Made by a program: the position numbers and the translations under genes | Shown: piece after piece, positions 14,901-42,222 of the stretch | Position numbering within the stretch: position 1 is the stretch's first letter | Layout: the number at the start of each line of letters is the position of its first letter | From: Bdellovibrionota bacterium | GTDB lineage: Bacteria; Bdellovibrionota_C; UBA2361; OMII01 | Direction of reading: 5' to 3' | Assembly: GCA_044345405.1 (NCBI GenBank) | Contig: JBIJBE010000019.1 | Span: 1-64,000, forward strand | DNA: 64,000 bases | Notes under the pieces: model-generated | Told to the model about the DNA's origin: nothing | The model's input: only the letters and a program-made list of their open reading frames with translations | Databases searched by the model: none

Positions 14901-15285
14901 TGAGCGAGAACTCCGTTCCTCGAATAGCCGCTGTCACGTGCTCCGTAACAACGGTCGGATGCTGCTCGGAGTGACTGAAGAAATGGAGAGCGCCCTCAAG
15001 GAGGCCGACCTTCTTGTCGGCGGCGGCCAGGGTCAATCGTGAGTTAGACGCGAGCCTCATGTACGAACCGTCCGACATCGCGAGGGCGACTCGTCCTGGG
15101 TCTCCAACCACGATCTCATCGCCCGCCTCCAGCCGCATTCCCTCACTCGCCGGTAACGCGCGCCCCCCTCGTTGGACAGAGGCATCCCCTTGCAACGAAA
15201 AGATTGAGGCCAAGGGCGCCGTATCCGCGAAGGCACGAGGCGAGCAGAGAAGGAGGCAAACCAGGGCGAAAAATAGTTTCTTCAT
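11929..15285 (-). CDS. FecR-domain / TPR / outer-membrane beta-barrel receptor (NsrA-like architecture)
   Basis: Signal peptide (AFA-D), FecR domain (TAAIRGTEF), several TPRs (e.g. YARAIELDPNDPTPHLY), beta-rich C-terminal half ending in Phe (RINF). Confidence 0.85.
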   Translation of the reverse strand: MKKLFFALVCLLLCSPRAFADTAPLASIFSLQGDASVQRGGRALPASEGMRLEAGDEIVVGDPGRVALAMSDGSYMRLASNSRLTLAAADKKVGLLEGALHFFSHSEQHPTVVTEHVTAAIRGTEFSLTTDASTTTIKMMSGSVQGVSSNGVAALGAGEGARFSKGKAPEVYALMQSERTVQWSAFVPLFAPEEFAGGVDARALRLLSEGKSDEALALLPRQETRCTMAGALRGRVLVSRGDMALGVRELERCVTSGADSGVVAAAASTLSAIKLAQGQGDESRALAQKAVALAPSSVSARLALSFALQDKGDLDGALAAVTSDTTSSEDLTARRAELLFMFGRVPEARELLETLRERSWYAETVYGFVLMGDRSFDQAEGAFSRAAQMEPGAGLPQMGLGLVEVNRGNLEEGRNRFEKATVLEPSRSLYRSYLAKSYFEADSYDPAEPEYARAIELDPNDPTPHLYRSFMRLAENKPVEALRDIEAARDLSDKRDVYRSKFLLDEDSATQSASLARVYRELGFTQRGRIEAVSAIYDDYQNASAHRLLSETDMAVLTAPSALSERRIADLFSPLSINVADSIGTNVSLNEYSALFERDGWRTGITGNYSSYDDQFVEGILSANKSGNVLTALTASGVHGDGAIDDPRSNEGRAGISVQVQPTWGDRLLGEIRGVFYDSDQTDENDTYASGTFNGSYLHKFSPETSIIAQTSYRRGKDRLTRPDNNSSLHLTSPDGSLDEFTDARYDQKQSQYESAAENELQLIDRTGVVTSVLTGRYSNYDLDAYDHSTLLNDDVGILDDLGVEFSSSASNNVVTSGVDYLATVRATDSLSLNVGADYSHVGFAARQESPFVNDDQSNSKLTPQGGIVFQPSSALIARVGYGQNLGRSSFSALASVEPTLIGGISQRYQDINPGVIAQNFGTGLDFQPWRSTYIGGEWVRRWLEDPRVPAVYTADIDFNEASVSTDVEYSDRDNVSVQQDLVSAYVYQIVTDRFVLGNDYRYARNTVGLPDDSFIKGHRNRAFGRYFFTNMFFAQAGGTYLYQDRAGYELDGVPNGSDAGWMFDAALGYRLPTRHGFITAGVNNIFGQDFVLEQAVFNDNAIVVNDPIFELAARINF

Positions 15286-15418
15286 GTGCGTCTCGCTCAA
15301 TAGTGAGAATCCCGCCGAGAGTTTAACCCACCAACCTACCCCTCACTAGATGGTAATCAACACCCCAAGCGAAAGAGGGATCTCGCCCAACACCCCCCAC
15401 GAATGATAAGAACCTCTG

Positions 15419-17386: not shown

Positions 17387-17527
17387 CGGGCGTATAAAGC
17401 GAAAGGCCCCTTCAGCAAAACGGCATATCAGCCGACTAATTGTGTGTGGTCACCGCCTCAATACGATCGTAAACTGCCTAAAGAGATTCCAGCCATTAAG
17501 CTAGGGAAAATTCGTAGAGCGCCATCT

Positions 17528-19291: not shown

Positions 19292-19305
19292 CGGCCATTT
19301 CTACC

Positions 19306-19469
19306 ACGTGAACGTGCTCGTGCGCGTAAACGTGAACGTACCCGAGCCCGATCCGCAGTATCAATCCATGGCGTAACTTTGTGCTATTGCCGAGCGCCCT
19401 CGTAAATTTATCAAGGACGAACAATATTTTCGGGTACGTTCACGTTCATGTTTACGAGCACGTTAACGT
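19306..19469. repeat. 39-bp imperfect inverted repeat pair (REP-like) between convergent genes
   Basis: 19306-19344 is the reverse complement of 19431-19469 (CGGGTACGTTCACGTT...GAGCACGTT.ACGT) with 6 mismatches; third copy at 51022-51060. Confidence 0.85.
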
Positions 19470-19533
19470 CCGAACAAGAGCGAGTAGGCTCACACTAAGC
19501 CGGAGCCGACGCAACCACGTGCCGAACCGCTTC

Positions 19534-22500
19534 CTATTCCACCGTCCACACCCGTCCCTCGTTGGTAAGGAACATCTTCCGCATCTCCTCAAGGGTGAAG
19601 GGGCGTGACCCGATACGCCCCATGACACTGACCTGATTGCCGGTTTCGTCGGCCGCACGGTCACGATCAAGCGGCTTAGAGATGGCGAGCGCCGGACCTA
19701 CCGTTCGCTTCTTGGCGATGATCATCGGATTAACGGGAGGAGAAAAGCCGTAGAAACCTGGAACCCGCTCAGGGTCGGTCATCTGGAGCACCACGAGCCC
19801 GTTCACACCATCAGCGGCGTACCCGATTAAGCTCGCGTTCGTTGTGGCCACCTTAACGTCATAGGTATCGTTCAAGGTCCCTTTGCCGGAGAACTTTTGA
19901 TAGAGGCTCGGCTTCTCAGGGCGCTCCACGTCGATGATCACAATCCCCTCTTTTCCACCCCCGATGTAGGCGTACGTTCGAGCGACATAGACACTTCGGG
20001 CATCACTCAACGCGATCGATGCCTCGGGTACACGTCGAGGTTTTTCAGGGAAGGTCATGTCGATAACGTGAAATCCATCAGCGTCGGTCATGAAGGCGTA
20101 GCGGAACTGAACGGCCACACCCGTTGGTTTACGCGCCGACCATGTCGCTTCCACTCGGGGCGACAAAGGATCTTCAAGGCTAAGTACAACTACCTTGTCC
20201 TCGGTTCCAATAAACGCCCGAGCCCCCGCGAGGGCGATGTTCCGCGCGCCGCTGAGCACACCGTCCTCATTCCAGGTAAGCGCGCGCTCCAGGAAGTTAT
20301 TGCGTGGCTCACCATCTTGCAACGTATCCACGTTCACCACGATGAGCCCCTCCTCGCTATCGGTGATAAAGGCGTAGTGGTAGATCGGATGCATCGGGGT
20401 CTCTAGGTTTTCGGGTAGCTGCGTCTTGAAGGGAGCTACCGGCATCGTGGTGGGGAGCGCTAAACCTGTCGCGTTCTTGGAGGGAACATGAATGTTTTGC
20501 CCAAGAGGTGAAACGGAACTCGTCACAATACGCTCGGAAAACCCTTTATTGGCGATGTTCGCGATATCGTACACACGGAAGCCATCAGAACCCGCCGCGG
20601 TGTAGAGATACTCGCCCCGCATCTGAATCGCGTTGGTTCTCTCCCCAACACCGTGATGAGCGTGGCTCTCCTCAAGCTCGAGCCCTCGCTCCTGATGCGC
20701 TTTGTAGTAATCGGGGTAGGCGTACCGATGGAGATAGCTTCCGATAACGGCCTGCGGCTCATCCCATTCGGTGACCTGCACAGCTTCGACCCCACCATCA
20801 GCGGACGCGACCCAGGTGTAGTATCCCATGAAGTTCACGAAATTCGTTCCGAGCGTCATGAGCTGCGCGAGTATCGCGTTGTTGTCGTTCTCTTTCGAGA
20901 GGTGGCAATCCTTACACTCCTTCGTTTCCCTTGCGCGCACGGTATGGGGAAAGTGTGGAGCGAACGCCTGAGAACTATACCCAGCCGAGGATGTCGGTGG
21001 TTGCTGAATATAAATCTTCTGCCGATTGATGTCGGTTGAACTCAGCATGAGCGCGCTTGAGGAACGAACAGGAACGATCTTACCGTTCTTTGCCGGTCCG
21101 TGACGCCCCAGTTGATACATCTCATCCCGCGCGACCTGCGGATTATAGCTCGCCCAGTTACGGGTGATCTTACCTTCGTAGTGATTAGTTTCCTTCTTCC
21201 AGTTTGCCTGAATCGGAAGGTGGCATCCACCACACGCGGTCGTCCACGAGCTGTGACATGCGTAGCACGACATATCTGAGTTCGGATGCGCGAGGTTCTC
21301 CTCGAACTCGGGGTTGGAGGCCTCCTGGGCGGTAGCTAGCGTGTAGGAGTCAGCGCCATCAGCTATCTTTTTGACAAGCTTCGCCTTGGCCGACTTCGCG
21401 TTGTAGTCGCGGTTACCGGGATTCACGGAGTCCTTAACCTGCTTCACTCGCCACTCGAGCCCCTCTGTCACAAGGGAACGTTGATAGAGCCCATCGTCCT
21501 TCCAAACGAACTGACGCTCGCCCCAAGGAGTACGCTTCGTTGTAAGATCCCGTCCCCCATCAGCGGCAGCCGGTCCCGAGGTCTTGAGCGCAGCCCGCTG
21601 AGTCACGTTTCCATGGCAATCGTCGCAAGAGATCTCCACCGCCTGCGCCACCTCGCCGTAGATATTTCCATCACCGTGGGTGTCCTGCGAAAAATGGCAA
21701 TCCACGCACTGCATCCCGAAGTCAACGTGGATATCCTGGAGATGCACCGCCTTCTTGAACTTCTGCGGATCATCGAAGGAGACGATCTTGCCATCCTTGT
21801 CCAAAAGATGCCCTTTGCGATCCCGTTTATAGACGGCGCGGAAGTTCCATCCGTGCCCATGGTAATCAGCGAATTGCGTGGTATTCAGCTTCGGATTGAG
21901 CTCGCTGACCCGCTTGAGGAAGTCGATATCGGTCCACTTACCCCGCATCGCGGCCTCCTCCGGATTGTGCTCCATCGACTTGTAGCTCTCCTCCATCGTG
22001 GGATACTTCTGTTTCTCGGGCCACATAAACGGGGCGTCGCTCTCGTAATCCCACATCGTGTACCCAATATAGGTGTTCACGAACATATTAGGCTGGTGCA
22101 TGTGACACACCATGCACTGGCTCGTTGGGATCGCTCGGGTAAAGAGATGTTTGAGCGGATGCCCCTCCTCATTCTTTGGTATGGTCGGATCAATCGTCTG
22201 AGTTTTGCCCTCATGACCGAACTTCGCGTAGGGACCTGAGTGACGAGGATCCCGGTCGTTCGCGTAGATAGTGTGACACGCCGTACACCCACTACTTCGG
22301 TAATCCCCTGGGTGATCGTTCGTTCCAAGAAAGCTTAGGTGCGGGTCGTTCAAGCGGGTCTTATGAATATTGATAACGGGAACCGCGATACGAGCGCCCG
22401 TGCCCGGTCCACGATTCGACGCCCTAACATCCGGCTTGCCCGGTTCTTCAAGGGGATTCGGCACGCCTATCTCCGCGAACTGGCTCTTCACAAACATGCC

Positions 22501-23256
22501 TCCCCGCTCGAACACGCGGAAAATATCGGCCGGAGGGAGAACCTCCCAGGTCGGAAGTGGCAAGAGCTTCTCAAGGGCGCCCCGCGCTCGCATCTCTTTC
22601 GTGAGTGGGCGTCCATCGTGGACGATACTCGCGGGTTGCCCGTTCTGGGTATAACTCTCCCCAAGGAGATAGTTCTTATACGGAAGGATACCGTTGTTGT
22701 AGGCGGCACCACCCCACAACATCGCCGAGGTGGTCATCAAGCTCTTCTTCACCGCGGTCGTTATCTCTGAGTGACACCCACCACACGCCGCGGGAGCGGC
22801 GCGCAGGTCTCCAGGATTAACGAAACGCGCGAATTCGACAGATTCCTTGAGAAGGTTTGTGTAGGAATGCTTCGGATTGGCTGAGGTGGGCCAGTTCTCA
22901 GGATGTTGAGGAAGGATGTGCGCCGCCTTCTTTCGCTCCGTGTAGAGCGGAGAGCTCTTTGCTACTCCCTGAGCGCGAACGGTAGGGTCTCCCCCGTGAC
23001 ACTCAGCGCACCCGATATGAACCGCGGGATTCTGATGCATGGTCGGCGCGTCGGTTTTGGTGTGACAATCCGTACATCCAAGGCTTGTTGCCTCCATCTG
23101 TTGAGGCGAGCCCCCTGGCCGAATGATATTTTTGTACTCCGCGTCATCAGCAAATCCGTTCCCCATGGTGCCTACAAGGAGCGCGACCAGCGAGAGGAGG
23201 AAACGGAGCGAACCTAGCCGCGAATCTTTCAGTGATGCTCTTTCCTTGATATCCAT
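19534..23256 (-). CDS. Large decaheme c-type cytochrome with C-terminal LVIVD-repeat propeller
   Basis: Signal peptide; 10 CxxCH (CTDCH, CAECH, CGGCH, CTACH, CMVCH, CVDCH, CDDCH, CYACH, CGGCH, CKDCH); LVIVD-type repeats (YAYIGGGKEGIVIIDVERPEKP etc.). Confidence 0.9.
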   Translation of the reverse strand: MDIKERASLKDSRLGSLRFLLSLVALLVGTMGNGFADDAEYKNIIRPGGSPQQMEATSLGCTDCHTKTDAPTMHQNPAVHIGCAECHGGDPTVRAQGVAKSSPLYTERKKAAHILPQHPENWPTSANPKHSYTNLLKESVEFARFVNPGDLRAAPAACGGCHSEITTAVKKSLMTTSAMLWGGAAYNNGILPYKNYLLGESYTQNGQPASIVHDGRPLTKEMRARGALEKLLPLPTWEVLPPADIFRVFERGGMFVKSQFAEIGVPNPLEEPGKPDVRASNRGPGTGARIAVPVINIHKTRLNDPHLSFLGTNDHPGDYRSSGCTACHTIYANDRDPRHSGPYAKFGHEGKTQTIDPTIPKNEEGHPLKHLFTRAIPTSQCMVCHMHQPNMFVNTYIGYTMWDYESDAPFMWPEKQKYPTMEESYKSMEHNPEEAAMRGKWTDIDFLKRVSELNPKLNTTQFADYHGHGWNFRAVYKRDRKGHLLDKDGKIVSFDDPQKFKKAVHLQDIHVDFGMQCVDCHFSQDTHGDGNIYGEVAQAVEISCDDCHGNVTQRAALKTSGPAAADGGRDLTTKRTPWGERQFVWKDDGLYQRSLVTEGLEWRVKQVKDSVNPGNRDYNAKSAKAKLVKKIADGADSYTLATAQEASNPEFEENLAHPNSDMSCYACHSSWTTACGGCHLPIQANWKKETNHYEGKITRNWASYNPQVARDEMYQLGRHGPAKNGKIVPVRSSSALMLSSTDINRQKIYIQQPPTSSAGYSSQAFAPHFPHTVRARETKECKDCHLSKENDNNAILAQLMTLGTNFVNFMGYYTWVASADGGVEAVQVTEWDEPQAVIGSYLHRYAYPDYYKAHQERGLELEESHAHHGVGERTNAIQMRGEYLYTAAGSDGFRVYDIANIANKGFSERIVTSSVSPLGQNIHVPSKNATGLALPTTMPVAPFKTQLPENLETPMHPIYHYAFITDSEEGLIVVNVDTLQDGEPRNNFLERALTWNEDGVLSGARNIALAGARAFIGTEDKVVVLSLEDPLSPRVEATWSARKPTGVAVQFRYAFMTDADGFHVIDMTFPEKPRRVPEASIALSDARSVYVARTYAYIGGGKEGIVIIDVERPEKPSLYQKFSGKGTLNDTYDVKVATTNASLIGYAADGVNGLVVLQMTDPERVPGFYGFSPPVNPMIIAKKRTVGPALAISKPLDRDRAADETGNQVSVMGRIGSRPFTLEEMRKMFLTNEGRVWTVE

Positions 23257-23264
23257 AATTCGAC

Positions 23265-25109
23265 TCAGTACTGAAGAATCAAGTTAGTGAAGGCGTGATA
23301 GTTGGTCTGATTGCCGAAAAGGTTCTCCTGCCCGGCTTCAGGAAGGAGAACCGCCGATCCAACACGAACCAAAACGTTTTGGTTCAAGAATGGTCGATAG
23401 AGGAATCCAGCGGAGAGATCCCACCCGATATTTCTACTGATAGAACCATCCATACGAACCGCCTCGAGGCTCGCCGTCTGATCGAACTGCAGGAAGCTGG
23501 CGTTCGTCACCAGCTTAAGCTCCGGCAAAAGCTCAAAATCCACACCCAAGTTGTAGAGACGGAGGCCGGGATTCACGAAGTTCGATTGCCCCATCTCCTT
23601 CGTGGCGCGAAAGTTCGGAAGAAGGCTGTTACGATTGGTCAAGTTCGTACCGCCGGTTCCAACAAACGGTATCCCCTCACGTTGCCAATACGAAAGATCC
23701 CCCCCAGCGAAGTTAGGCGAGTCGAATATCGCGTCAAAACCGGTGCCCTGGTTGTCCCGAGGATCCTTATCTCCTGAGGCCCACATACCGGACACCCTGA
23801 GCCGGATCCAATCGATGTCGTACGAGAACTCCTGCGCGACCATTCCGGCGTTGATGTCGACCTGTCGCTGCGCTATCTCGTTGTGGCTCTGAGAGCCGAG
23901 CGCATAGTACATCTGCGTGGTGGTATTGATCCTATCGATGTGACCATCCCCACCAACGCCCAAATAGGTGGAGTAGATATTTCCGGGACGCTCATCCCCG
24001 ATCGGAGCCGGTCGCGTGAGGAACCCGTTTTGGTCATACACATATCCTTGATTGCCTGAGGTATCTCCTCGATAGACAACGCTCATGCTCGTCGTGTGCC
24101 CAGGGGCCAGAAGATCCTGCCTATAGGTGTTCGCGACCACGACCGCCTCATGCCGGTTGTCGAAGGTCGAGTTAATTCCCGAGTTCACGTTCTTGTCGAG
24201 CCGATTAAACCACGCCACGTTGAACTGCGTCTTGTTATTGTCGTAGTCACCGAAGAAGCGAACTCCGGGTTGGTTATCGTTGTAGAGAAAGCCTCTAAAA
24301 TCCGCGTTGAATTGTTGAATACCACCACGCATCGAAACGAAGTCGTACCGCTCAGAGAGGTTGGCGAGGTGAACATCGGCGAAGAGTTCCTGGAACCCCA
24401 CGTCGTTGGTGGAGCGGGTATCGCCCCGCGCTGGGTCCGCGAAGAGGATTCCATCCTCCTCTGCTTTGACATAGTTAAAATTAAATATCGGTGCGATACG
24501 CAGCTCAAAATCGGGGGGCTTAAATGAGGTATTCCCCTTAATGAGACCGAAAGACACGATCACATTTTCGCCGAAGATCGTCTGATTCCCATCACCGAAG
24601 GTATCGTTGCTATTCGGGCGCCTCGTTGACGCGAATCCAACGGGAACTGGAACTCGCCGAGCCTCAAAGAAGGTATCGGAGATTACCGAAACTTCGGTAA
24701 ACCAAGGTTCAGCGGGCGAGCCAAAGACAGGGATATCCCCCTTCAACACGTTCTGGTTATAGGGGTCATACCACTTGCCGGCGTAAAACATCCGCCACCG
24801 ATCAGGAACCGGCACGAATCCGGAGGCCGAACTCTCGATAGGCTGCACCGACTCGTAGATCGTTTCAGGGAAGTAATCCGTTTCTCGGCCGGGAAAGGAG
24901 CGCTGAATAAGCTCCTGGGGAACCTTGTGCGATTCAGGGGTGGATACTACCGCAGCCGGTTGAGCTTCACCGTCTTCAGCGCGCGCGGCTACTGAGAACA
25001 CCACAACGAAAATGAGCGCAACGAGGAGAGCGCGAACAGGGCCGAAGGCGGAAGCAAGCTCCCAACAAGCTACCGCGCTCTCCTCCCGCTCTCCTTGGCA
25101 TCCTCGCAT
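23265..25109 (-). CDS. Putative outer-membrane beta-barrel (porin-like) protein
   Basis: Signal-like hydrophobic segment (ARA-E), amphipathic aromatic beta strands, C-terminal aromatic residue (LILQY). Start uncertain (25109 or 25139). Confidence 0.7.
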   Translation of the reverse strand: MRGCQGEREESAVACWELASAFGPVRALLVALIFVVVFSVAARAEDGEAQPAAVVSTPESHKVPQELIQRSFPGRETDYFPETIYESVQPIESSASGFVPVPDRWRMFYAGKWYDPYNQNVLKGDIPVFGSPAEPWFTEVSVISDTFFEARRVPVPVGFASTRRPNSNDTFGDGNQTIFGENVIVSFGLIKGNTSFKPPDFELRIAPIFNFNYVKAEEDGILFADPARGDTRSTNDVGFQELFADVHLANLSERYDFVSMRGGIQQFNADFRGFLYNDNQPGVRFFGDYDNNKTQFNVAWFNRLDKNVNSGINSTFDNRHEAVVVANTYRQDLLAPGHTTSMSVVYRGDTSGNQGYVYDQNGFLTRPAPIGDERPGNIYSTYLGVGGDGHIDRINTTTQMYYALGSQSHNEIAQRQVDINAGMVAQEFSYDIDWIRLRVSGMWASGDKDPRDNQGTGFDAIFDSPNFAGGDLSYWQREGIPFVGTGGTNLTNRNSLLPNFRATKEMGQSNFVNPGLRLYNLGVDFELLPELKLVTNASFLQFDQTASLEAVRMDGSISRNIGWDLSAGFLYRPFLNQNVLVRVGSAVLLPEAGQENLFGNQTNYHAFTNLILQY

Positions 25110-25119
25110 CTCTACCCGC

Positions 25120-27009
25120 CTAGAAGTCCTGACACACATTTTGGTCGTTGTCGCGGATGAACGGCGCCTCCGGACAATTTACGTACCGCAATCGAATCTG
25201 CTCGGGCGTCAGGTTGATATGATCAGCCCGCATCGCCTGAGGGGCGTTGAATCCGAGCTCAGGATCCCCAACCGTGGACTGACCAGCGTAGTTCAAGCCC
25301 GCGCGACTCGATGAGTAGAACGCGACGAGATCATCCTGGTCAATGCCGTCCCCACTAATGCCGATCGCGCCGATGAGGGTGCCCGATCTGTAGAGAGGAA
25401 CCGCGCCGGGGAATATCTGAATACCGTTTCGAGCGCGTCCCCCAAGTCCTGAGCCGGAGGCGCACCCCGATGGTGGGCTTGCTGGATGAGCTATAGAGGC
25501 GATCATCGCGGTCTTCACTATGTCGAGCTGCAAGCCGGTATTGAATGGACTCCACGTGTTTCCAACACCAGGGAATGGAAGTGAGAGCGGCCCAGGCCCC
25601 GTGCCATCGATACCATCCGGCATAAACGGTCGAGCCATATTGCCGATCGACCGCGCGGTGTACGCGTACGAGCCGTTGAGCGGAACGCCGGTAAAGGCGG
25701 TGGTCTCGGCGACGTAGTTACGACTAAACCCCTGCCCGCTCGACAGCACCCCAGCCGCGTCCGTTGAGCTAAAGAGCGCCGCGCCACGCGCTTTTTGAAG
25801 CGATACATCGATACCAAACACCGGCGCGTCTTGCGAACGAACAAAACCAAGAGGGTTACCGAGATCATCAACGACAAAGATCGACACACGCGCGTTTGTA
25901 TCAAGAGGATATCGAATCGCCGCGCGGGTCCGCGACGCGGTGATGATAGCTGAGGTGAGGAGCGCGTCCACCTCTCCAGCTTGAAGTTGCGCTCCGTTGG
26001 CGAGGGGGCGCCCCGCCTTGGTGCCGAACCGCCCCGTAAGGACGGCCGCGGGAACTCCGGCGCGCGAGGTCACGACGATCCCGGACTCCGGGGAGCCGAA
26101 GGTAACACCTGCTCGGATGGTAGCCCCGCAATATCCTGTAACAGCCTTGAGCCCTCCGTTTTCCAATGCATCGAGGGTGTCTGGTGGCGTTATGGCACCG
26201 TAGGAGGTATCCGAGAATCGGAGAGAACGTCCAGCGACTGAGATGTTATCAGCGGTACGCTCCGATGGAGCCTCGAACCCGAGAGAGGCGGCGAGCGCGA
26301 CCTGCTCCTCAGGATCCTCATCCGTGTCCGAGACGACTCTATCTACCGTATACAGCCCATCGAACTCGACCCCAATACCACCGACGATATCGCCGTTCTT
26401 GTAAAGGGGAATGCCACCCGGGTCACCGGAGAGACCGAGAGGAAGTGGTCGGGGACCGGCGGAGCCCGAACCCTTCACGGTCACATCACTACAGGCAAGT
26501 TGCGAAAACTGAACACCAAACAGAGGCCCTCCAGGAGCGTTGTTTTGCCCAGGAACGAAGTGTTCCTGAATGATCTGACTCGCCGTCCTTGTGGTGAAGG
26601 CGTTCCCTTGGCTACTCAGATACGAGCCGGTCCCCGCTTTTGATATCGCGGCGAGTGTTGAAGGTACCACAGCGCCCTCAAGCCCTCCGGCCGCACCGAG
26701 TTGACCGTTGATTGTCGTCGTGGCCGGCGCTCCCGCCATCTGATAGACGGCGAGGACGTTACCAACTCTATCGAGAACCGCGAAGGTTCCCGCCGTCCCC
26801 AATTGCCGCGTAGCGGTTACCGCTTGTTGTAGGATCACGGTAACATCAGCTGGCGTGAGGGCCTGATAGGCACATCCTCCGTCGCAACCGAAGTTCGCTC
26901 CTCCACCACTCTGTCCGCCACCTCCACCGCCGCCGCCCCCTCCTCCACATCCAACGGTGGTAAGGATAAGCGTGGCAACAAGGAAGTGGGCAATCGGGAA
27001 ACGTACCAT
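25120..27009 (-). CDS. Lipoprotein with two GlcG/HbpS-like heme-binding domains
   Basis: Lipobox TVGC plus an 11-Gly linker; two domains: AVLDRVGN...SKAGT...GGIPLYKNGDIVGGIGV and VVDDLGN...QKARGA...GAVPLYRSGTLIGAIGISG. Confidence 0.82.
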   Translation of the reverse strand: MVRFPIAHFLVATLILTTVGCGGGGGGGGGGGQSGGGANFGCDGGCAYQALTPADVTVILQQAVTATRQLGTAGTFAVLDRVGNVLAVYQMAGAPATTTINGQLGAAGGLEGAVVPSTLAAISKAGTGSYLSSQGNAFTTRTASQIIQEHFVPGQNNAPGGPLFGVQFSQLACSDVTVKGSGSAGPRPLPLGLSGDPGGIPLYKNGDIVGGIGVEFDGLYTVDRVVSDTDEDPEEQVALAASLGFEAPSERTADNISVAGRSLRFSDTSYGAITPPDTLDALENGGLKAVTGYCGATIRAGVTFGSPESGIVVTSRAGVPAAVLTGRFGTKAGRPLANGAQLQAGEVDALLTSAIITASRTRAAIRYPLDTNARVSIFVVDDLGNPLGFVRSQDAPVFGIDVSLQKARGAALFSSTDAAGVLSSGQGFSRNYVAETTAFTGVPLNGSYAYTARSIGNMARPFMPDGIDGTGPGPLSLPFPGVGNTWSPFNTGLQLDIVKTAMIASIAHPASPPSGCASGSGLGGRARNGIQIFPGAVPLYRSGTLIGAIGISGDGIDQDDLVAFYSSSRAGLNYAGQSTVGDPELGFNAPQAMRADHINLTPEQIRLRYVNCPEAPFIRDNDQNVCQDF

Positions 27010-27023
27010 CGAAAAATGTCCTT

Positions 27024-28691
27024 CTATCTCGTCAACGTGTGGAGGAAATCGGTGAGGCTTTGTTTTTTCTCTCGGGGAACTTCAAGGGCGGCGTGATAGG
27101 CGTGACACTGAGTGCAATCAGACTCAACGAAACCTGCCTTCGCGCCCTCCATATGACACTCCCGACACACCGCGATCGAAGGCAACAAAAGATCCTTCGT
27201 TTCCGTGGATGTTCGAGTCTTCTCGTGACACGACTCGCACGAGAGCTCCTCGTGCGCCCCGTGATCAAACCGCGCCTTCGTCATCCACACCGCAGGGATG
27301 TTCGGAGCGGTGATGGTGTAGCGAGTCTCATCGACCCGTTGATCGGAAAGGGGCTTCTCCCGATAGGTGTGACAGAGGAAGCATCCTGTTCGAGTAAAAA
27401 CCTCCTCCTCAGCGCGGCGAGCGCTCGATTGGACAAGCATCGCGTCCGGGCTCAGTGGTCGAGACTCGGCCACAGTGTCCCCTCCGCCAGGCAAGATCCG
27501 AGCGCCATCGATAGGCGCTGCGGTCTCCCTCCCTCCATCAAGCAAGAGGAGCTTCGCGTACTCAGCGAAGAGCGTTGGATAGACGTCCGAATCATCTCCG
27601 TGGGGCAACTGTTTATCCGGCAACCGTTCATCGAATCCGAGGCTATGACACGATCGACAGTTTCGATCGAACGATACAGGCAACATCTCTCGTTTATCCG
27701 TGGAGAGCTCATGGCAGGCGTTACACTGAAGGGTCGTAGGTCCTTGCGGGCCCCGAAGCCCCTCTCTCAGATGCACGGCATGGTTCAACTTGATGGCCGT
27801 AGAATCAATCGCTCCTTTTGGATCATCCACGGGCACTCGCTGGGTCCCACCCGCGTTATCAAAAACCGATATTCTAAATTGAGGATGCGTCGCGAGATTC
27901 GCGACATCGAGCGCCCGCCCCTTGTGCCTACTCATCGTCGCGTGACAAGAGACACACTGGCGAGAGTCTCGGAGGATTAAGCCGTGATCTCCATTATGCT
28001 CCATGTGACACTGGGCGCACCGAAGCTCTAGTCCCTTGTGCTTCGAAAGAAAGTCCTTCTCGCCCTCAGCGTGTTGAGACATGACGTGACAATTCAAACA
28101 CTCTCGATCCTCAACCCGCTCAAACGGCGTAAGGTGACACCGCTGACAATCGTTTTCAATCATACGGTGCGCGTTCGAGACAGGACCACTACTCCACTCA
28201 CGGTACCGTCCACTCACAAGGGGATAGGCGAAACATCCAGCGAGCACCAAGAGAGCGGCGACGAAGGAGAGGAGCCGAATTGAGGGAAGGTACGACTCCA
28301 GTTGAAGCTTCCGCGCTCGCCGAGCGACGACCTCAGTATCCGATACACACTCCTGACTGACGGACCGAAGGGTAAGGGTGACCTGGTCGCCCGATATGCC
28401 AACCAGAAGAGAGAGCTCCCCGAGCTGAATAACATCACCAGAGGTAAGCGTGTGTCGAGCCACCCGCGTGTTGTTGACGCGCACGCCCACGAACGAGTCC
28501 ATATCCGCGATAGAAACCCGACCATCTTCCAGATACACCTTCGCGTGAACAAGCGAGAGGGCCGCGTTCGCCAGGACAATATCAGATGCACCACCCCGAC
28601 CGATGAGGACCTCATGTTGATCGAAAGCGTCACTACTCCGCTCAACCGCGCCGTCACCGTTCTCCCTCTCGTGAATGAAGAGTATTCTCAT
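27024..28691 (-). CDS. FHA-domain, membrane-anchored decaheme cytochrome c (c3-like)
   Basis: FHA (IGR..SLVHA), one TM, 10 CxxCH (CQRCH, CLNCH, CAQCH, CVSCH, CNACH, CRSCH, CFLCH, CESCH, CRECH, CTQCH). Confidence 0.9.
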   Translation of the reverse strand: MRILFIHERENGDGAVERSSDAFDQHEVLIGRGGASDIVLANAALSLVHAKVYLEDGRVSIADMDSFVGVRVNNTRVARHTLTSGDVIQLGELSLLVGISGDQVTLTLRSVSQECVSDTEVVARRARKLQLESYLPSIRLLSFVAALLVLAGCFAYPLVSGRYREWSSGPVSNAHRMIENDCQRCHLTPFERVEDRECLNCHVMSQHAEGEKDFLSKHKGLELRCAQCHMEHNGDHGLILRDSRQCVSCHATMSRHKGRALDVANLATHPQFRISVFDNAGGTQRVPVDDPKGAIDSTAIKLNHAVHLREGLRGPQGPTTLQCNACHELSTDKREMLPVSFDRNCRSCHSLGFDERLPDKQLPHGDDSDVYPTLFAEYAKLLLLDGGRETAAPIDGARILPGGGDTVAESRPLSPDAMLVQSSARRAEEEVFTRTGCFLCHTYREKPLSDQRVDETRYTITAPNIPAVWMTKARFDHGAHEELSCESCHEKTRTSTETKDLLLPSIAVCRECHMEGAKAGFVESDCTQCHAYHAALEVPREKKQSLTDFLHTLTR

Positions 28692-28694
28692 GAG

Positions 28695-29513
28695 CTACCA
28701 GAAGAAAAACACCGAGAGTATGTGGATAGCGACCGCGACGCACGTCGCGACTGAACTGGGCACATGAACAAAGAGCCAGAGACGCAAGAGCGCCTTTATT
28801 CGCGCCTCCTCAAGCAACCCGTTCGTCAGGTCGCACTTTTGATCGAGCAAACCAAAGAGGCGGAGCGCCTCATCACGCTCATTCTCTGGAAGGTTTCCAA
28901 GGGCGTCCCCCGCCATCCGTTGATCGATATGAACGAGCTTCGGCGCCCGAATAAGGGTCGCGAGGCTAACCACGAAGGGTGGATTGAGTCGCTCGGCCAA
29001 AACTCGAAACGCATCACTCTTTCCGAGACACATCTGCTTAATTGAAGCGCCTAGCGAACTCAACTGTTCAAGGACCTGCGTCGATTTCACTCCACCTCTG
29101 TGGGACTCGATGCGCGACGCGAGGGTGGTGTAGTTAACTACCCCCCACATTCCGCTTACGATAGTCACGACCATCAGAAAAAACGCGAGAGAGTGCACGT
29201 TCCACCCGAAACTAAATCCGGCGTGAAGGGGCACGAGCGCAAGGAGCCCGGTTCCGATCCACACGTGGGCGGAGAGCCATCCTTGCACGCTGCCCAGGGC
29301 CGAATGATACGCTCTCTTTCGCGCGCCGTAGAGCATGAGCCATATGAGTCCGATGGTCGCGAGTGTACCGAAGGTATATCCGACCGCCGTTCCACCGTTG
29401 CGACCTCCGATCGGGTCATCAACGACGTAGATGCCGCAACACACCGCGACCGCGGCCACGGTGATTACGAGCCATCGATAGTTCCGATATGAGATGAAAC
29501 GTTCCTGCATCAC
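28695..29513 (-). CDS. Integral membrane protein, probable di-heme cytochrome b / ferric-reductase-like
   Basis: About 5 TMs with paired His in two helices (WLSAHVWIG...LVPLHAGF; WLFVHVP...VAIHILSV). Confidence 0.65.
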   Translation of the reverse strand: MMQERFISYRNYRWLVITVAAVAVCCGIYVVDDPIGGRNGGTAVGYTFGTLATIGLIWLMLYGARKRAYHSALGSVQGWLSAHVWIGTGLLALVPLHAGFSFGWNVHSLAFFLMVVTIVSGMWGVVNYTTLASRIESHRGGVKSTQVLEQLSSLGASIKQMCLGKSDAFRVLAERLNPPFVVSLATLIRAPKLVHIDQRMAGDALGNLPENERDEALRLFGLLDQKCDLTNGLLEEARIKALLRLWLFVHVPSSVATCVAVAIHILSVFFFW

Positions 29514-29517
29514 GCCG

Positions 29518-31860
29518 CTATATCCTCTTCGATTGCGCGATTCGAATCAGCTGTTCGGCGTCTACTCGCATCGCTGCCCCCGTTGGACACGCTCGAACAC
29601 ATGCCGGACCACCGGATAACTCATGGCACTGATCACACTTAGCTGCCTTTGCGGGGCCCTCAACGACCTCACCGAATCCGAGCCATGCCAGAAGTGAGTT
29701 CCCCTTCCGAACGTGCTCGTGGGTGATGTGTATGACACCGTATGGACAATTACCCACACAATTACCGCATCCGATACATGAGTCCTTGATAATAACCTCG
29801 CCGTTCGGGAGCCGGACCAGCGCGTCGGGAGGGCAATCGAGCATGCATAACGGGTTCTCGCAGTGACGGCACGAGATAGGAAGCTGAATCGAGGCGAAGC
29901 TCTTGCCACCCCGTCGATCGAGTCGTGAATGCCCACCGTGCGTCGCGGCGCACGCGGCTTCACAATTATCACACGCGACGCAGAGGTCGGAATCAATCAG
30001 AAGAACGTTCTCCGCGTCCGTTAAGCCCTCTGTGGCCATGAAGTCGAGGAGCGATCCTGATTTTTCATCCCAGTTCGTCACCACGTTCTCAACCTTTCGC
30101 TCCTGCGCGATTCGGGATATCCGCTCACGCGCCGCGGGGAAGGCGCGAAGGAGGTCGAGAAAATCCCCCTTCTCAATAAGAATAGTCTCGCAGCCAACCG
30201 CAGCCGTTACCGTGGCAGATCGAGGCATCTCCTTCTCAGAGAGAATAGACATCTCCCCCACATAGTGTCCCGCCGCTATGTACGTTTGCGCGACATCGAC
30301 ACCGGCTCGGTTTCTCCGCGATATCTTTACCGAGCCCTTACGAATAACGTAGAGGGCATCTCCAATATCCCCCTCTTTGAAGAGCGCTTCTCCCTTTTTG
30401 AAACTCTTCATCTTGGCTCGCTTCACCAGCGCCTCAAGGAAGCCACGCTCAACCTCCGGAAATATGGAGGTCTGAAGAGCTCGAAGGATAAACACCTCAT
30501 CCAATGACCGACGCACCGATTTCACCGATGCCATGAGCTTAAGGATCTGTTTCCGTGGCGTCTCAAGGAGGATCGCCCCACGGTCACTCACTCGCGCGGT
30601 AGCGGTTCTGCGCCTCCCGGAGATCAGTCCCATCTCTCCAAAGAAATCACCCGCCTCAAGGGTAACGACTCGATGAGGCGCGACCTCGATCTCAACCGCG
30701 CCCTCGACAACGCTCCAGAAGGTGTCAGTGTGGTCGTTCCTCTCAAACACGACCTCCCTCGGCGATTTTACGTGGAATGTCGAATCGATGATCATTTCGC
30801 GCGTTTGAGGGGCGCTCAGATCCGAGAAGAGCGGGAGACTACCGGTGACCTTTTCGAAGTTTTTTTCGAATCCTCCTGGGAGGCTCTTGAAGCGCTCCTC
30901 CAATAGGGGTTGGTCAGCCGGCTCAACGGCCACACCTCGGATATGCTCGATCACCTCGTATCCTTGGTTGATCGCCTGCTTGATTAAGGGATATCCAATG
31001 AGCGCCCCGAGGATGAAGAGATTGGGAACGTTTGACTCGTAGCGAGCGGACACCCTCGGCACCGCGGTGGATTCCTCACTCGGAAACTCTACCCCGATCG
31101 ATTCCAAAAAACCCCGAGGCAGAACGCAGCCGAGACGAGCGATTACGTGATCACACGGGATAGCTATCTCACCATTCGGTGTCGAGACGGTAAGCACGTT
31201 TGACTCAACGCGAGCGACGACTGAATTGTAATAGCAGCGAATCTTGCCACTCTCTATCGCGGTCAGGGCCAACTTCGCGTTCGCCTCCTTCGCTCGGGCG
31301 AATTCCTCACCCCGGTTGAGTAACGAAACCGTATTGTGAACGCTCAACGCCAAAGCGTTCTCTATGGCCGCGTCGCCAGCTCCCACCACGACGATGTGGC
31401 GCCCTTTAAAGGCGTCCGGATCCGAGAGCGTGTACGCCACATGCGGCGAGTCGCCGCCCGGCGCGGTCACCTTTCGAGGAGAACCTTGAACGCCGATACT
31501 CAGGACAACGTGGGTAGCGGTGCAGATAAAACCGTCGTAGTGAATCTCAAAGTTCTCTCCCACCTTGGAGATCTTCGTGACCTCCCCTTTGACGAGATTG
31601 ACGGAGTGGGAGGCCAGGTCAGACGCGAACTCCTTAAGGATCTTCTCTCTACTCCCCGCCTCGAACCGACACCGCGCGCGAAGGGGAAGCTTGGAAGGCT
31701 CCGCCATAACATGCTTGCGGAGCTGATAGTCGTGAATGGTGTTGGCGATCTCTCCCTTCTCAATGAGGATATGTGAGAGCTTATGGTGGGCGGCGTTTGT
31801 AGCGGCTCCGATACCCGCGGGCCCTGCCCCAATTATCGCGACGTCGAAGTGCTCTGTCAT
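29518..31860 (-). CDS. FAD/NAD(P)H oxidoreductase fused to two cNMP-binding domains and a 4x[4Fe-4S] ferredoxin domain
   Basis: GAGPAG and GAGDAA Rossmann motifs with no TrxR CxxC; cNMP cassettes FGEMGL..RTA and VGEMSI..RSA; four Cys groups CVACDNCEAAC, CRHCENPLCMLDCP, CIGCGNCVGNCP, CDQC..PACVRACP (DmsB/NrfC pattern). Confidence 0.92.
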   Translation of the reverse strand: MTEHFDVAIIGAGPAGIGAATNAAHHKLSHILIEKGEIANTIHDYQLRKHVMAEPSKLPLRARCRFEAGSREKILKEFASDLASHSVNLVKGEVTKISKVGENFEIHYDGFICTATHVVLSIGVQGSPRKVTAPGGDSPHVAYTLSDPDAFKGRHIVVVGAGDAAIENALALSVHNTVSLLNRGEEFARAKEANAKLALTAIESGKIRCYYNSVVARVESNVLTVSTPNGEIAIPCDHVIARLGCVLPRGFLESIGVEFPSEESTAVPRVSARYESNVPNLFILGALIGYPLIKQAINQGYEVIEHIRGVAVEPADQPLLEERFKSLPGGFEKNFEKVTGSLPLFSDLSAPQTREMIIDSTFHVKSPREVVFERNDHTDTFWSVVEGAVEIEVAPHRVVTLEAGDFFGEMGLISGRRRTATARVSDRGAILLETPRKQILKLMASVKSVRRSLDEVFILRALQTSIFPEVERGFLEALVKRAKMKSFKKGEALFKEGDIGDALYVIRKGSVKISRRNRAGVDVAQTYIAAGHYVGEMSILSEKEMPRSATVTAAVGCETILIEKGDFLDLLRAFPAARERISRIAQERKVENVVTNWDEKSGSLLDFMATEGLTDAENVLLIDSDLCVACDNCEAACAATHGGHSRLDRRGGKSFASIQLPISCRHCENPLCMLDCPPDALVRLPNGEVIIKDSCIGCGNCVGNCPYGVIHITHEHVRKGNSLLAWLGFGEVVEGPAKAAKCDQCHELSGGPACVRACPTGAAMRVDAEQLIRIAQSKRI

Positions 31861-32073
31861 GAACCGTGGGCCGTACCGCCTATAAAAACTGATCGGCTGA
31901 ATAGTAGTACGTCCCTAAGGTTTCTTAAAGAATGTTTAGCGTGGTTTTGATCTTCCGGCGTACCTGACCGGCCCGTTCACCTACGAAATCGGGAATTGCG
32001 ATCCGCCTAGTCCTGTGAAGTATACTGGTGCCACTACAAGAGGCCGCACTAACCGATCGCTCACCGCTAACCG

Positions 32074-33366
32074 ATGACACCCACCCTAACGAAACACCTG
32101 TATGCGACCGCTCTACTCCTAGCCGTGGGAATGCTATCCGCTGAGGCCACACCCCAACCTGTAGGGCCCGGGTCATGCTCCTCCTCGAACTGCCACGGGG
32201 CCATCAAGCCCCTTAACTCATCGAATGTACTACAAAATGAATACATTACCTGGAGTCGTCACGACCGACACGCTCGGGCGTACCTTACCCTCCAAAGCGC
32301 CGACTCAAAGAAGATAGCCTCCAACCTCGATATCGGAGATCCAACAAAAGCCCCCCTCTGCCTCTCCTGCCACTCGATGGATACACGGTCACTAGCCTCA
32401 ACGAGCGACAAAGTTCGGGCTGAAGATGGGGTATCCTGTGAAGCGTGCCACGGCCCCGCCGAGAGGTACCTTAAGAGCCACGCCGTCACCGGAGCCTCAC
32501 ATTCAGGGAACGTCGCAAATGGGCTTACCGATCTCTCGAATATCCACACGCGAGCCACCTTGTGCCTCTCCTGTCACTTCGGCACCGAGGATAAAACCGT
32601 CAACCATACCCTCTACGGAGCCGGACATCCCCGACTCACCTTTGAGCTCGATACCTTCGGGGTTCTTCAACCAAAACATTGGGTCGTCGACGCTGATTAC
32701 GAGCGCAGAAAGGGGCCATACATCCCCGCGCGCGCGTGGCTCATCGGACAGCTCCACCACGCGGAGGCCGCTCTCGATGCCCTTGAATCCCCGACTCGAT
32801 CGAGGAACGGCAACCTGCCAGAGCTGAGCCTCTTCGATTGCTATTCATGTCACCACAGTCTGAGCGAACGTCAGTGGAAGAAACGTAACTACGGCGGAAA
32901 GCCGGGTCGACTCAAACTGAACCTCCCTGCGCTCGTGACGGTTCAGGCAGCCACCAAGGCGGTAAATACGCCGCTTGGGGAGGAGCTCACGGAACAGATA
33001 CGCGCGGTGCACGATACGTTTGCTCAGGACTCGGCTCAGGTGGCGATAGACTCTCTTCAGGACACCCTCACAACGAAGGTGGGACCTCTCTTTGAGCGTC
33101 TTACCATCGACCATTCGACCGGCGGTCACATCCTCGCCGGCCTGGCACAGTGTGCCGCGAACACGCAATCACCTACCTTCGAGTTGGCGGAGCAGCTCGC
33201 GATGGGAATGCAGGCGACCGTTGCCTCATCTCCGGAGCTTGCCAAGCGATATGACGCGCCCCTGAAGCAGCTTTTCATCTCACTGAAGAACGCCGAAGCA
33301 TTTAATCCCGAGGCGTTTAGACGCGCGGCGAGCGCCTTTAATCGTCTAGCCTCTCAGGTGCGGTAG
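32074..33366 (+). CDS. Multiheme cytochrome c554-like protein (5 predicted hemes)
   Basis: Signal peptide; VGPGSCSSSNCH (CX4CH), CLSCH, GVSCEACHGP, CLSCH, CYSCH. Confidence 0.87.
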   Translation: MTPTLTKHLYATALLLAVGMLSAEATPQPVGPGSCSSSNCHGAIKPLNSSNVLQNEYITWSRHDRHARAYLTLQSADSKKIASNLDIGDPTKAPLCLSCHSMDTRSLASTSDKVRAEDGVSCEACHGPAERYLKSHAVTGASHSGNVANGLTDLSNIHTRATLCLSCHFGTEDKTVNHTLYGAGHPRLTFELDTFGVLQPKHWVVDADYERRKGPYIPARAWLIGQLHHAEAALDALESPTRSRNGNLPELSLFDCYSCHHSLSERQWKKRNYGGKPGRLKLNLPALVTVQAATKAVNTPLGEELTEQIRAVHDTFAQDSAQVAIDSLQDTLTTKVGPLFERLTIDHSTGGHILAGLAQCAANTQSPTFELAEQLAMGMQATVASSPELAKRYDAPLKQLFISLKNAEAFNPEAFRRAASAFNRLASQVR

Positions 33367-33372
33367 CACGAT

Positions 33373-34086: not shown

Positions 34087-34092
34087 CCACGT

Positions 34093-42197: not shown

Positions 42198-42222
42198 GCT
42201 CCAGCTGTATCGATAGCGCGCA

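Follow-up and report, generated by a model that had tools for sequence, protein, structure and literature searches.

A co-conserved multihaem gene cluster from a Bdellovibrionota bacterium and its candidate role in cyclic-nucleotide-gated electron export

From which donor, and in which direction, would a set of multihaem cytochromes carry electrons when their genes lie beside those for a cytoplasmic flavo-iron-sulfur protein and an outer-membrane barrel? This question is raised by seven genes, here named A to G (Table 1), in a 64,000-nucleotide stretch of contig JBIJBE010000019.1 from a Bdellovibrionota bacterium, which we refer to as the window. Genes A-B-C-D-E-F are arranged head to tail along the minus strand, separated by gaps of 4 (A-B), 3 (B-C), 14 (C-D), about 10 (D-E) and 8 (E-F) nucleotides, and G is divergent on the plus strand. 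The D-E gap turns into an overlap of 20 nucleotides if E starts at 25139. An initial annotation of the window proposed that the cluster wires cytoplasmic NAD(P)H to the periplasm or the cell surface under cyclic-nucleotide (cNMP) and FHA control. In this study, the seven genes and their domains were all found as it described them, according to the open reading frames (ORFs), Pfam matches and motif counts. We lean towards the interpretation that the products form a cNMP-gated electron-export chain, comparable to a multi-subunit diderm NADPH oxidase or ferric reductase, which would pass its electrons to a terminal reductase, a haem-propeller protein at the outer membrane.

Genes A to G form one co-conserved unit. 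The order, with G diverging from A-B-C-D-E-F, was kept in 14 of 14 related loci, which came from the genus itself and from four further families of its order and had differing flanks; one of these loci was cut by a contig end. Full-length C and E were found together in 28 of 41 related genomes, E alone in 1 and neither in 12, and this all-or-none presence was seen even inside the genus. The genes were thus co-conserved, as the initial annotation had expected. Homologues of the barrel E made up more than 5171 clusters, all unnamed, and relatives were confirmed in at least 599 of 600 matched stretches from species-representative genomes. The locus counts given here rest on 80 loci kept from the scan of these genomes. 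According to record titles, they span Bdellovibrionota, Alpha- and Gammaproteobacteria, Myxococcota, Acidobacteriota, Planctomycetota, Verrucomicrobiia and Binatus, and named carriers also include Burkholderiales and Methylophilaceae. In 72 of the 80 loci, F shares the strand of E and lies no more than 1.3 kb downstream of it, and in 6 more the contig ends directly behind E. D was present in 67 loci, and A, C, B and G in 41, 40, 38 and 32, respectively; the complete seven-gene set was present in 18. These gene counts are lower bounds because many loci are short contigs. A cultured Zavarzinia with a complete genome (L088) carries the full set. The cluster members were annotated as hypothetical throughout. 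A scan for promoters and terminators over positions 19000-34000 gave counts equal to those of shuffled sequences (6 vs 6.0; 15 vs 12.3).

Copy number and linkage differed in single genomes. In the 1.64-Mb chromosome of a Methylophilaceae genome (L043), which retains the cluster, B-C-D-E-F-G form one block that lacks A. About 290 kb off lies a full-length A (46% identity), and behind it a second copy of B, so that this streamlined genome keeps two B genes. The Myxococcota genome of L052 holds a second complete A-B-C-D-E-F copy (L145) with 26-53% identity to the window proteins; the cluster can therefore be duplicated.

The cluster contains 24 CxxCH motifs and one conserved CX4CH, giving 24 or 25 c-haem sites in total. 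Ten CxxCH are in C, ten in F and four in G, and the CX4CH of G reads CSSSNCH. This motif was present in 40 of 42 G orthologues, in agreement with the 25 c-haems counted in the initial annotation, which had also pointed to cytochrome c maturation as a feature to look for. The maturation proteins CcmE, CcmF and CcmC are encoded in the same genome, a 3.59-Mb assembly of 85 contigs.

Protein A defines the cytoplasmic end of the putative chain. Pfam placed Pyr_redox_3/_2 at residues 5-300, two cNMP_binding stretches at about 345-590 (3.5e-35) and Fer4 families at about 620-780, with PF13247 at 1.4e-8. In NCBIfam, the flavin domain was nearest to YpdA (4.5e-41, 140.7 bits vs a cut-off of 339.9), and it matched TrxR with 61 bits (cut-off 343). 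No CxxC was found in residues 1-330 when the sequence was read. A function as a disulfide reductase of the TrxR/YpdA type was rejected, because A has no CxxC. The ferredoxin domain was HydN/DmsB-like, with both matches (HydN 1e-19, DmsB 1e-14) under the NCBIfam cut-off. Its 16 Cys make up four groups of the ferredoxin type, CVACDNCEAAC, CRHCENPLCMLDCP, CIGCGNCVGNCP and CDQCH..ACVRACP. The CDQCH was rejected as a haem site, as it lies inside the fourth Fe-S motif of a cytoplasmic protein.

Across lineages, the invariant core of A consisted of the cNMP domain(s) and the four-cluster ferredoxin, and the flavin module varied among three forms. The first is the fused TrxR/YpdA-type module without CxxC, found in the window and in proteobacterial and myxobacterial copies; A of Myxococcota carries an additional FHA domain. 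In the second form, A has a NuoG-like N-terminus and is preceded by a NuoE/NuoF fusion gene with an FMN domain (Acidobacteriota L070, L072 and L081). The A-like protein of a planctomycete (L099) shares the NuoG-like N-terminus, and the NuoEF-like ORFs formed a cluster from 10 loci, 9 of Acidobacteriota and 1 of Planctomycetota. The third form is a separate FAD_binding_6/NAD_binding_1/Fer2 (2Fe-2S) protein, which occurs in loci of the ptd type, a sister cluster compared below. Because non-homologous NAD(P)H modules take the place of the flavin module on a constant core, the cytoplasmic partner is predicted to be NAD(P)H. These results give good support to a cytoplasmic end made of an NAD(P)H-type flavoprotein, predicted to be wired to Fe-S clusters and to a membrane protein of the di-haem b type. 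With such a cytoplasmic end, the quinone pool would not be the obvious electron source.

The membrane protein next to A is B. It has the motifs W79-x3-H83-x13-H97 on the third transmembrane helix (TM3), S120-G121-x-x-G124 on TM4 and W246-x3-H250-x13-H264 on TM5. H83, H97, H250 and H264 were invariant in 25 B orthologues, and so were G121, G124 and W246. B also has a cytoplasmic insert of about 110 residues ahead of TM5 and no flavin domain, and it is single-copy in its own genome. The only Pfam match was to cytochrome b561, below threshold. Weak matches were obtained with individual members of the family, to PF01292 (cytochrome b561) in 10 of 16, to PF01794 (ferric reductase) in 5 of 16 with a best E-value of 0.002, and to DUF4405 in 4 of 16. 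The nearest Atlas clusters were automatically named 'ferric reductase like' with a score of 0.97, which we take only as a lead. The B profile gave nothing meaningful against PDB sequences, where the best match (E-value 0.026) was a designed coiled coil. From its conserved histidines, B looks like a putative protein of the di-haem b type.

We investigated the relationship between A and B in loci where they are detached from D-E-F. In 5 of 5 genomes whose D-E-F locus has neither gene nearby, an A-like and a B-like gene stood side by side elsewhere. In three Acidobacteriota loci (L075, L094 and L103), the cNMP-Fer4 part is fused to the membrane domain of B. Because A and B are adjacent wherever found and because of these fusions, we infer that A docks on B. 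The N-terminal Fe-S fusions require B to have its N-terminus inside, and this topology would place H83/H250 near the cytoplasm and H97/H264 near the periplasm. The arrangement of the H83/H250 and H97/H264 pairs fits two stacked b-haems.

On the periplasmic side, C and G could receive the electrons. C has an FHA domain at residues 28-91 (5e-12) and matches to cytochrome c3/c7 families in Pfam. Its single transmembrane helix at about 136-160 leaves the FHA domain in the cytoplasm and the decahaem domain in the periplasm. Ten CxxCH were found in 43 of 50 C orthologue ORFs; five of the seven exceptions are visibly truncated, and the full-length proteins of L088 and L096 show 9 and 7 CxxCH. G matched Cytochrome_C554 (PF13435, 7e-12), and its C-terminal half is helical. 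A quinol dehydrogenase of the NapC/CymA type was represented only by a 17-bit match of C to NrfH, for which the NCBIfam cut-off is 134.

These features suggest the following route. NAD(P)H would reduce the FAD of A, and the electrons would pass through its four [4Fe-4S] clusters to the two stacked b-haems of B, ligated by H83/H250 on the cytoplasmic side and H97/H264 on the periplasmic side, and so cross the inner membrane. From B they would move to the ten c-haems of the anchored C, to the soluble pentahaem G and finally to F. The outward direction is favoured by bioenergetics, because a two-haem wire of this kind would move electrons with the membrane potential and downhill from about -320 mV. 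What the analysis shows directly is the gene content with its conservation, the motifs, the fold of the barrel, and the swaps and fusions of modules, whereas the transfer steps, their direction, the gating and the placement of F are deduced.

Electrons could also flow inward. F or a partner would then oxidise a donor in the periplasm or outside the cell, for instance Fe(II), Mn(II) or reduced humics, and the electrons would reach B through G and C and enter the quinone pool, or pass through A to NAD(P)+. Such a flow was proposed for the sister cluster PCC4 (He et al. 2017, Front Microbiol 8:1584, PMC5566968) and for a nonahaem cluster of Ferrigenium (bioRxiv 10.64898/2026.01.22.701106). Both sources also place related clusters in Fe(II) oxidisers, and the motif of B resembles that of quinone-reactive b cytochromes (PMC5566968). 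However, an NAD(P)H-type flavoprotein, present in three non-homologous forms, would be superfluous if B merely reduced quinone, and the reduction of NAD(P)+ from c-haems would run uphill in redox potential and against the membrane potential. The carrier groups Acidobacteriota, Planctomycetota, Burkholderiales, Methylophilaceae and Bdellovibrionota are also largely aerobic heterotrophs and not lithotrophs. We therefore regard inward flow as improbable and retain export as the direction of the proposed chain.

How electrons exported in this way would end at the outer membrane depends on E, F and D. No Pfam family matched E, MtrB_PioB included. The AlphaFold2 (AF2) model of E, made from a 40-sequence alignment, had a predicted local distance difference test (pLDDT) score of 69.6 and a predicted template modelling (pTM) score of 0.67. 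It showed a beta-barrel with about 19-20 long strands over residues 122-613. The best Foldseek match was AlgE (E-value 1e-14), followed by OccD/OccK and chitoporin. The fold test, set beforehand, thus returned the outer-membrane barrel predicted in the initial annotation, with the AF2 fold and Foldseek in agreement. By its model, E is an outer-membrane barrel of the AlgE/OccD/maltoporin fold class. References of the AlgE/OccD type are 18-stranded channels for solutes or polymers, whereas MtrB has 26 strands. A role of E as an MtrB-like sleeve was rejected on fold class. Moreover, neither C nor F matched TIGR03508 (MtrA/DmsE) at an E-value of 0.01 or below, and G scored 22 bits against a cut-off of 192 (NCBIfam). 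Since the fold class of E is not that of MtrB and neither decahaem is MtrA/DmsE-like, a sleeve of the Mtr type across the outer membrane is unsupported. Of the proposed wire from NAD(P)H to the periplasm or surface, the inner half of flavoprotein, Fe-S clusters and di-haem-b-type B was therefore upheld, whereas the wire through the outer membrane was not.

F was the most conserved protein of the cluster, with a median identity of 51% across phyla in the 80 loci. Pfam matched its haem part (about 50-800) to cytochrome c7/c3 and its propeller (about 860-1240) to LVIVD, and NCBIfam gave a weak choice-of-anchor B match at 2.5e-4. When the sequence was read, F showed a simple Sec signal without a lipobox. 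Of its 1240 residues, 221 were invariant across 25 orthologues, which represent at least 7 phyla. All ten CxxCH were invariant in these 25 and in 46 orthologues. Together with M174, the invariant or near-invariant His are enough in number for all ten haems to be bis-ligated, so that a catalytic haem with an open site is neither indicated nor excluded. The AF2 model of F (residues 41-1240, 46 sequences) had a pLDDT of 71 and a pTM of 0.77, with the propeller mostly above 90 and the haem domain loosely modelled. No fold match to the haem domain was present among the best 50 Foldseek matches, a search against PDB sequences returned one match with an E-value of 0.28, and residues 41-850 found only unnamed or generic multihaem clusters in the Atlas. 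NCBI labels a cultured orthologue as 'hypothetical / LVIVD repeat-containing'. We consider F to be the putative terminal redox protein.

A variant haem motif was also seen in F orthologues. In Acidobacteriota, Verrucomicrobiia and Binatus (e.g. L054, L063, L072 and L085), the third haem motif is a CX4CH (CG[TQS][AS]GCH), located at the same alignment column as the CxxCH of other phyla.

Two segments of E and F are highly conserved, yet modelled with low confidence. One is the predicted periplasmic, N-terminal segment of E at residues of about 60-120, and the other is the invariant C-terminal LDRDR..DETGNQ loop of F. This pattern suggests that the segments are bound to partners. In addition, the starts of E and F overlap or nearly abut in L063, L072 and L088. 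Because of these segments and the frequent overlap of the starts, we think that E and F form a complex.

D has an HbpS-like PF03928 match in 3 stretches (3.5e-17, 63 bits vs a cut-off of 25). Reading of the repeated GG[IV]PL...IG[GA]IG motif gave two DUF336 copies, and matches to PDB sequences were EfgA/GlcG-like (4e-7). A TVGC lipobox is followed by a Gly run. A lipobox-like Cys was found in 36 of 53 D orthologue ORFs, and 12 of the remaining 17 have misjudged or extended starts. The residues invariant in the 53 orthologues include C173 and C516.

We suggest that F, with its decahaem and propeller, works with the small barrel E and the lipoprotein D. E would most likely pass an unknown oxidant or product through the outer membrane, or dock F, without sleeving a cytochrome. 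A complete conduit across the envelope, as proposed in the initial annotation, would differ from this, in that F would lie on the surface, E would let haems of C, G or F come into contact through the outer membrane, and NAD(P)H electrons would be delivered to a solid or polymeric acceptor outside the cell, for example Fe(III)/Mn(IV) oxides or humics. The gene order from the cytoplasm outward and the constant pairing of the barrel with a decahaem are in line with such a conduit, and so are the propeller of F (LVIVD; choice-of-anchor B), of a type common in surface proteins, and the conserved low-confidence segments in the E N-terminus and the F C-terminal loop, which suggest partner binding. 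The authors of the sister clusters also read those as porin-cytochrome complexes (PMC5566968; bioRxiv 10.1101/2023.11.21.568154). The missing match of E to MtrB_PioB, and of C and F to the MtrA/DmsE family, argue against it, as does the Sec signal of F without a lipobox. GspL (PF05134) was above its cut-off in 0 of 5 carrier genomes, whereas the E. coli and Caulobacter controls were positive; GspL is divergent, and its absence only weakly favours a periplasmic F. Another marker of the type II secretion system, PF03934, was discarded as unspecific, since it matched 10 of 14 controls including Gram-positives. We consider the complete conduit unlikely, though less so than inward flow.

The gate of the proposed export chain would be the cNMP domains of A. 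Their motifs FGE..RRTAT and VGE..PRSAT looked intact when the sequence was read, and we take them to be the phosphate-binding cassette of cNMP domains. A source of the ligand is offered by a neighbouring gene for a class III nucleotide cyclase with a CHASE2 sensor. This gene and one for a FecR-domain and TPR protein lie about 2 kb past the 3' end of F, with one unrelated gene between. FecR-TPR proteins are the usual partners of CHASE2 sensors. A FecR and CHASE2-cyclase pair was also found upstream of E in L072 (Terriglobales). Homologues of the cyclase stood beside the cluster in 1 locus titled Bdellovibrionota and 6 of Acidobacteriota. The ptd-type locus L136 is flanked by FecR, a TPR/DUF481 protein and a CHASE2 cyclase, and a cyclase homologue also occurs at L137. 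The linkage therefore recurs in three distant phyla and in both cluster variants. The CHASE2 cyclase is likely the source of the cNMP bound by A. The cNMP would bind the tandem domains between the flavin and Fe-S modules of A and switch the chain on or off, and the FHA domain of C would add phospho-dependent control in some lineages. The predicted control of A by cNMP, the part of the regulatory proposal in the initial annotation that has held, is well supported by the invariance of the cNMP domains in the core of A and by the recurrent cyclases.

The same regulatory parts would suit a redox sensor, in which the haems of C, F and G report the redox state of the envelope through the FHA and cNMP modules without bulk flux. 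The FHA domain in C, the extra FHA domain on A of Myxococcota, the tandem cNMP domains and the adjoining CHASE2 cyclase and FecR are consistent with this. HbpS, the namesake of the D family, is a redox-sensing accessory protein. However, a chain of NAD(P)H, FAD, a 16-Cys ferredoxin and a di-haem b protein would be costly for a sensor and is conserved as an electron path. Pfam detected no kinase, DNA-binding or other output domain in the cluster, the FHA domain is dispensable in several phyla, and the extreme conservation of F is more enzyme-like. A role as a mere sensor thus appears very improbable, and we continue with the electron-export chain.

Several observations weigh against this chain as we describe it. 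The linkage of A and B to D-E-F is not constant, with A-like genes within the flanks of 41 and B-like genes within those of 38 of the 80 loci. B could react with quinones, and He et al. propose a quinone reaction for this type of inner-membrane protein (PMC5566968), so that the A-B-C chain need not be direct. The models of the sister clusters assume the opposite, inward direction (PMC5566968; bioRxiv 10.64898/2026.01.22.701106). The FHA domain is missing from C in Acidobacteriota, Planctomycetota and three gammaproteobacterial copies and is thus accessory and lineage-specific, which limits the proposed FHA control to part of the carriers. The adjacency of the cyclase is a minority pattern, seen in 7 of 80 loci. 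At the outer membrane, both AF2 models are of middling confidence (pLDDT of about 70), and Foldseek found only generic beta-propellers for F (YVTN, NosZ, cd1 NirS and BtuG). The LVIVD propeller type is typical of cell-surface proteins, which would favour a true conduit through the outer membrane. D has no invariant His among the 53 orthologues, and haem binding by D is therefore not indicated.

The cluster is very common, with carriers in hundreds of bacterial species, most of them uncultured, and the conservation of F is that of a core enzyme. If the proposed chain is correct, it would allow ordinary aerobic heterotrophs to move electrons from NAD(P)H out of the cytoplasm under the control of a second messenger and to bypass the quinone pool, and F would give a handle on a new terminal redox enzyme. 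A broader picture, which we offer as tentative, is that A-B-C(-G) is a widespread, cNMP-switched bacterial 'NADPH oxidase' exporting low-potential electrons to interchangeable outer modules. D-E-F would then be a class of terminal haem-propeller reductases that has so far escaped notice and comes with a dedicated outer-membrane channel. Among aerobes of soil and freshwater, it could be the enzyme so far missing from extracellular reactions that depend on NAD(P)H, for example the reductive acquisition of Fe/Mn or the production of superoxide outside the cell. With the module swaps (three flavin modules, two outer modules and the Fe-S-membrane fusions), both the NAD(P)H link and the gating by cNMP can be tested directly in cultured carriers.

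The coordinates of the cluster and of the two neighbouring regulatory genes are collected in Table 1. Between the cyclase gene and F, positions 17444-19291 (plus strand) encode a secreted protein of 615 aa without a Pfam family. Its repeated '...VAF.S.ASNLV.GDTN...D[IV]FV' units have the look of a TolB/PD40-type propeller, and only the closest relative (L011) also has it beside the cluster. Directly downstream of G, 33373-34746 (plus strand) encodes a DXD glycosyltransferase and an FkbM-type methyltransferase, which were not found beside the cluster elsewhere. The regions 8120-10686 and 36427-44232 hold cell-wall genes (two Mur ligases, an MraY-like glycosyltransferase of family 4 and a PBP transpeptidase); these flanks appear unrelated to the cluster and are not kept in relatives. 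Two further proteins, of 731 aa (37991-40186, minus strand) and 575 aa (40470-42197, plus strand), had no Pfam family at an E-value of 1e-4 or below.

Table 1. Genes of the cluster and neighbouring regulatory genes in the window (lengths in amino acids)
Gene	Product	Coordinates	Strand	Length	Basis
A	Flavo-iron-sulfur protein, cytoplasmic	29518..31860	-	780	Pfam, NCBIfam, Cys motifs
B	Five-helix inner-membrane protein, putative di-haem b cytochrome	28695..29513	-	272	Conserved His, weak Pfam
C	FHA, one transmembrane helix, periplasmic decahaem	27024..28691	-	555	Pfam, motif count
D	Lipoprotein with two HbpS/GlcG (DUF336)-like domains	25120..27009	-	629	Pfam PF03928
E	Outer-membrane beta-barrel, AlgE/OccD-like (model)	23265..25109 (ORF open to 25139; internal ATG 25109)	-	614/624	AF2, Foldseek
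F	Sec-secreted decahaem with C-terminal LVIVD beta-propeller	19534..23256	-	1240	Pfam, motifs
G	Secreted cytochrome c554-family protein	32074..33366	+	430	Pfam PF13435, motifs
	CHASE2-sensor class III nucleotide cyclase	15419..17386	+		Pfam CHASE2 1e-37, Guanylate_cyc 2e-21
	FecR-domain and TPR protein, candidate co-sensor	11929..15300	-		Pfam FecR 4e-13, TPR

No characterised system matches the cluster, in keeping with the initial annotation, which had listed no characterised example; a sister cluster has, however, already been named PCC4 (2017) and ptd (2023), in both cases without a function. In the LVIVD literature searched, no title or abstract contained a haem-LVIVD protein, and the literature search returned no paper combining three of the terms cyclic nucleotide-binding, multiheme, FHA and LVIVD. 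In these searches, the version with D-E-F was not found in print, although the supplementary carrier tables of PCC4 and ptd could include such clusters.

MtrCAB, PioAB and MtoAB resemble the cluster in that a decahaem gene lies beside a barrel gene and the multihaem chains are long enough to span the periplasm. The barrel of the window is smaller and of another fold class, and C and F do not belong to the MtrA/DmsE family. Input comes from a quinol dehydrogenase of the CymA type there, whereas a predicted NAD(P)H flavoprotein and di-haem b protein would serve here. The cNMP, FHA, HbpS-like and propeller parts of the window have no counterpart in these systems.

The inner half is closer to NOX and FRE enzymes, in which electrons go from cytoplasmic NAD(P)H to a flavin, to two b-haems (H-x13-H pairs on TM3 and TM5) and to an outside acceptor. 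These enzymes have six transmembrane helices and a fused dehydrogenase of the FNR type, whereas B has five helices and the flavin is in A, in a module of the TrxR/YpdA type. In the window, a 16-Cys ferredoxin and cNMP domains are interposed, and PF01794 was matched only weakly. NarHI and FdnHI likewise pair a four-cluster HydN/DmsB-like ferredoxin with a di-haem membrane cytochrome, and Hmc and Tmc of sulfate reducers link cytoplasmic Fe-S chemistry to periplasmic multihaem cytochromes. Unlike these systems, the cluster lacks both a molybdopterin subunit and one of the CCG/HdrD type. No homology of B to NarI or FdnI was detected, and the cytoplasmic end is predicted to be a cNMP-controlled NAD(P)H flavoprotein.

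Two further reported clusters are different systems. The porin and multihaem cytochrome cluster of Verrucomicrobia has an eight-haem periplasmic cytochrome (PMC5615132), and the uet cluster of Tenderiales has an undecahaem and NHL proteins. A trio of Ferrigenium straubiae, encoding an FHA-nonahaem, a protein with five transmembrane helices and a [4Fe-4S] protein, was called novel and of unknown function and was expressed in all conditions (bioRxiv 10.64898/2026.01.22.701106). By description only, it resembles A-B-C as a three-part inner module with a cytosolic FHA domain on a single-helix multihaem cytochrome. It differs in having nine haems rather than ten and in its location near nirK and an SHP-like gene, and its description mentions no D-E-F. 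Its authors saw no redox motif in the transmembrane protein and favoured inward flow to quinone.

The closest relative is PCC4, described as a porin, 4-, 5- and 10-haem periplasmic cytochromes, a five-helix inner-membrane protein (IMP) and a pfam13247 Fe-S gene (PMC5566968). The ptdABCDEFG cluster is a re-description of PCC4, with a 'function completely unknown', and comprises a pentahaem with a beta-sandwich, a porin, an FAD/NAD(P) oxidoreductase, a tetrahaem, a cNMP-4Fe-4S protein, a ferric-reductase-like transmembrane protein and a decahaem (bioRxiv 10.1101/2023.11.21.568154). The five-helix IMP has SGxxG on TM4 and W-x3-H-x13-H on TM3 and TM5, which are the motifs of B; He et al. liken this W-x3-H-x13-H motif of the PCC3/PCC4 IMP to that of ferric-reductase-type proteins (PMC5566968). 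A protein with pfam13247 Fe-S and cNMP parts is next to the IMP, as A is 4 nucleotides upstream of B, and the c554-like tetrahaem (PtdD) and the decahaem (PtdG) correspond to G and C of the window.

We compared the window with alphaproteobacterial regions fetched around weak matches to the B family (L135-L144). Loci of the ptd type were found in 9 of these 10 regions, with A-like, decahaem and/or G-like ORFs 23-35% identical to A, C and G of the window, and a B-like match was present in 5 of the 9. C and G of the window were 23-31% and 24-27% identical to the decahaem and tetrahaem ORFs, respectively, and matched the same Pfam families. L136 has a cNMP and Fer4 protein, an IMP, a decahaem, a tetrahaem and an FNR-like flavoprotein. 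In ptd/PCC4 the flavoprotein is separate, whereas the window has it in one protein with the cNMP and Fe-S parts and has an FHA domain on C. In the remaining region (L143, genome G254), a B-like gene and a TrxR-like FAD gene stand beside ORFs with 18 and 14 CxxCH; this variant may be related to the very haem-rich 'PCC3' type.

The two cluster versions differ in the outer part, where ptd/PCC4 has a pentahaem PtdA of about 680 aa and a porin of 457 aa in place of D-E-F. No homologue of D, E or F was found in the ptd-type loci of L135-L144. The ORF of 457 aa in the porin position of L136, the one ptd-type porin compared, gave an hhalign probability of 0.2% with E (E-value 0.25). The PtdA-like ORF of L136, used as a single query, had no match in the genome of the window at an E-value of 1e-3 or below. 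Because the ptd-type loci share A-, C- and G-like parts with the window and lack D-E-F, these comparisons of gene content indicate that a single module predicted to supply electrons, A-B-C-G, occurs together with two or more different outer modules.

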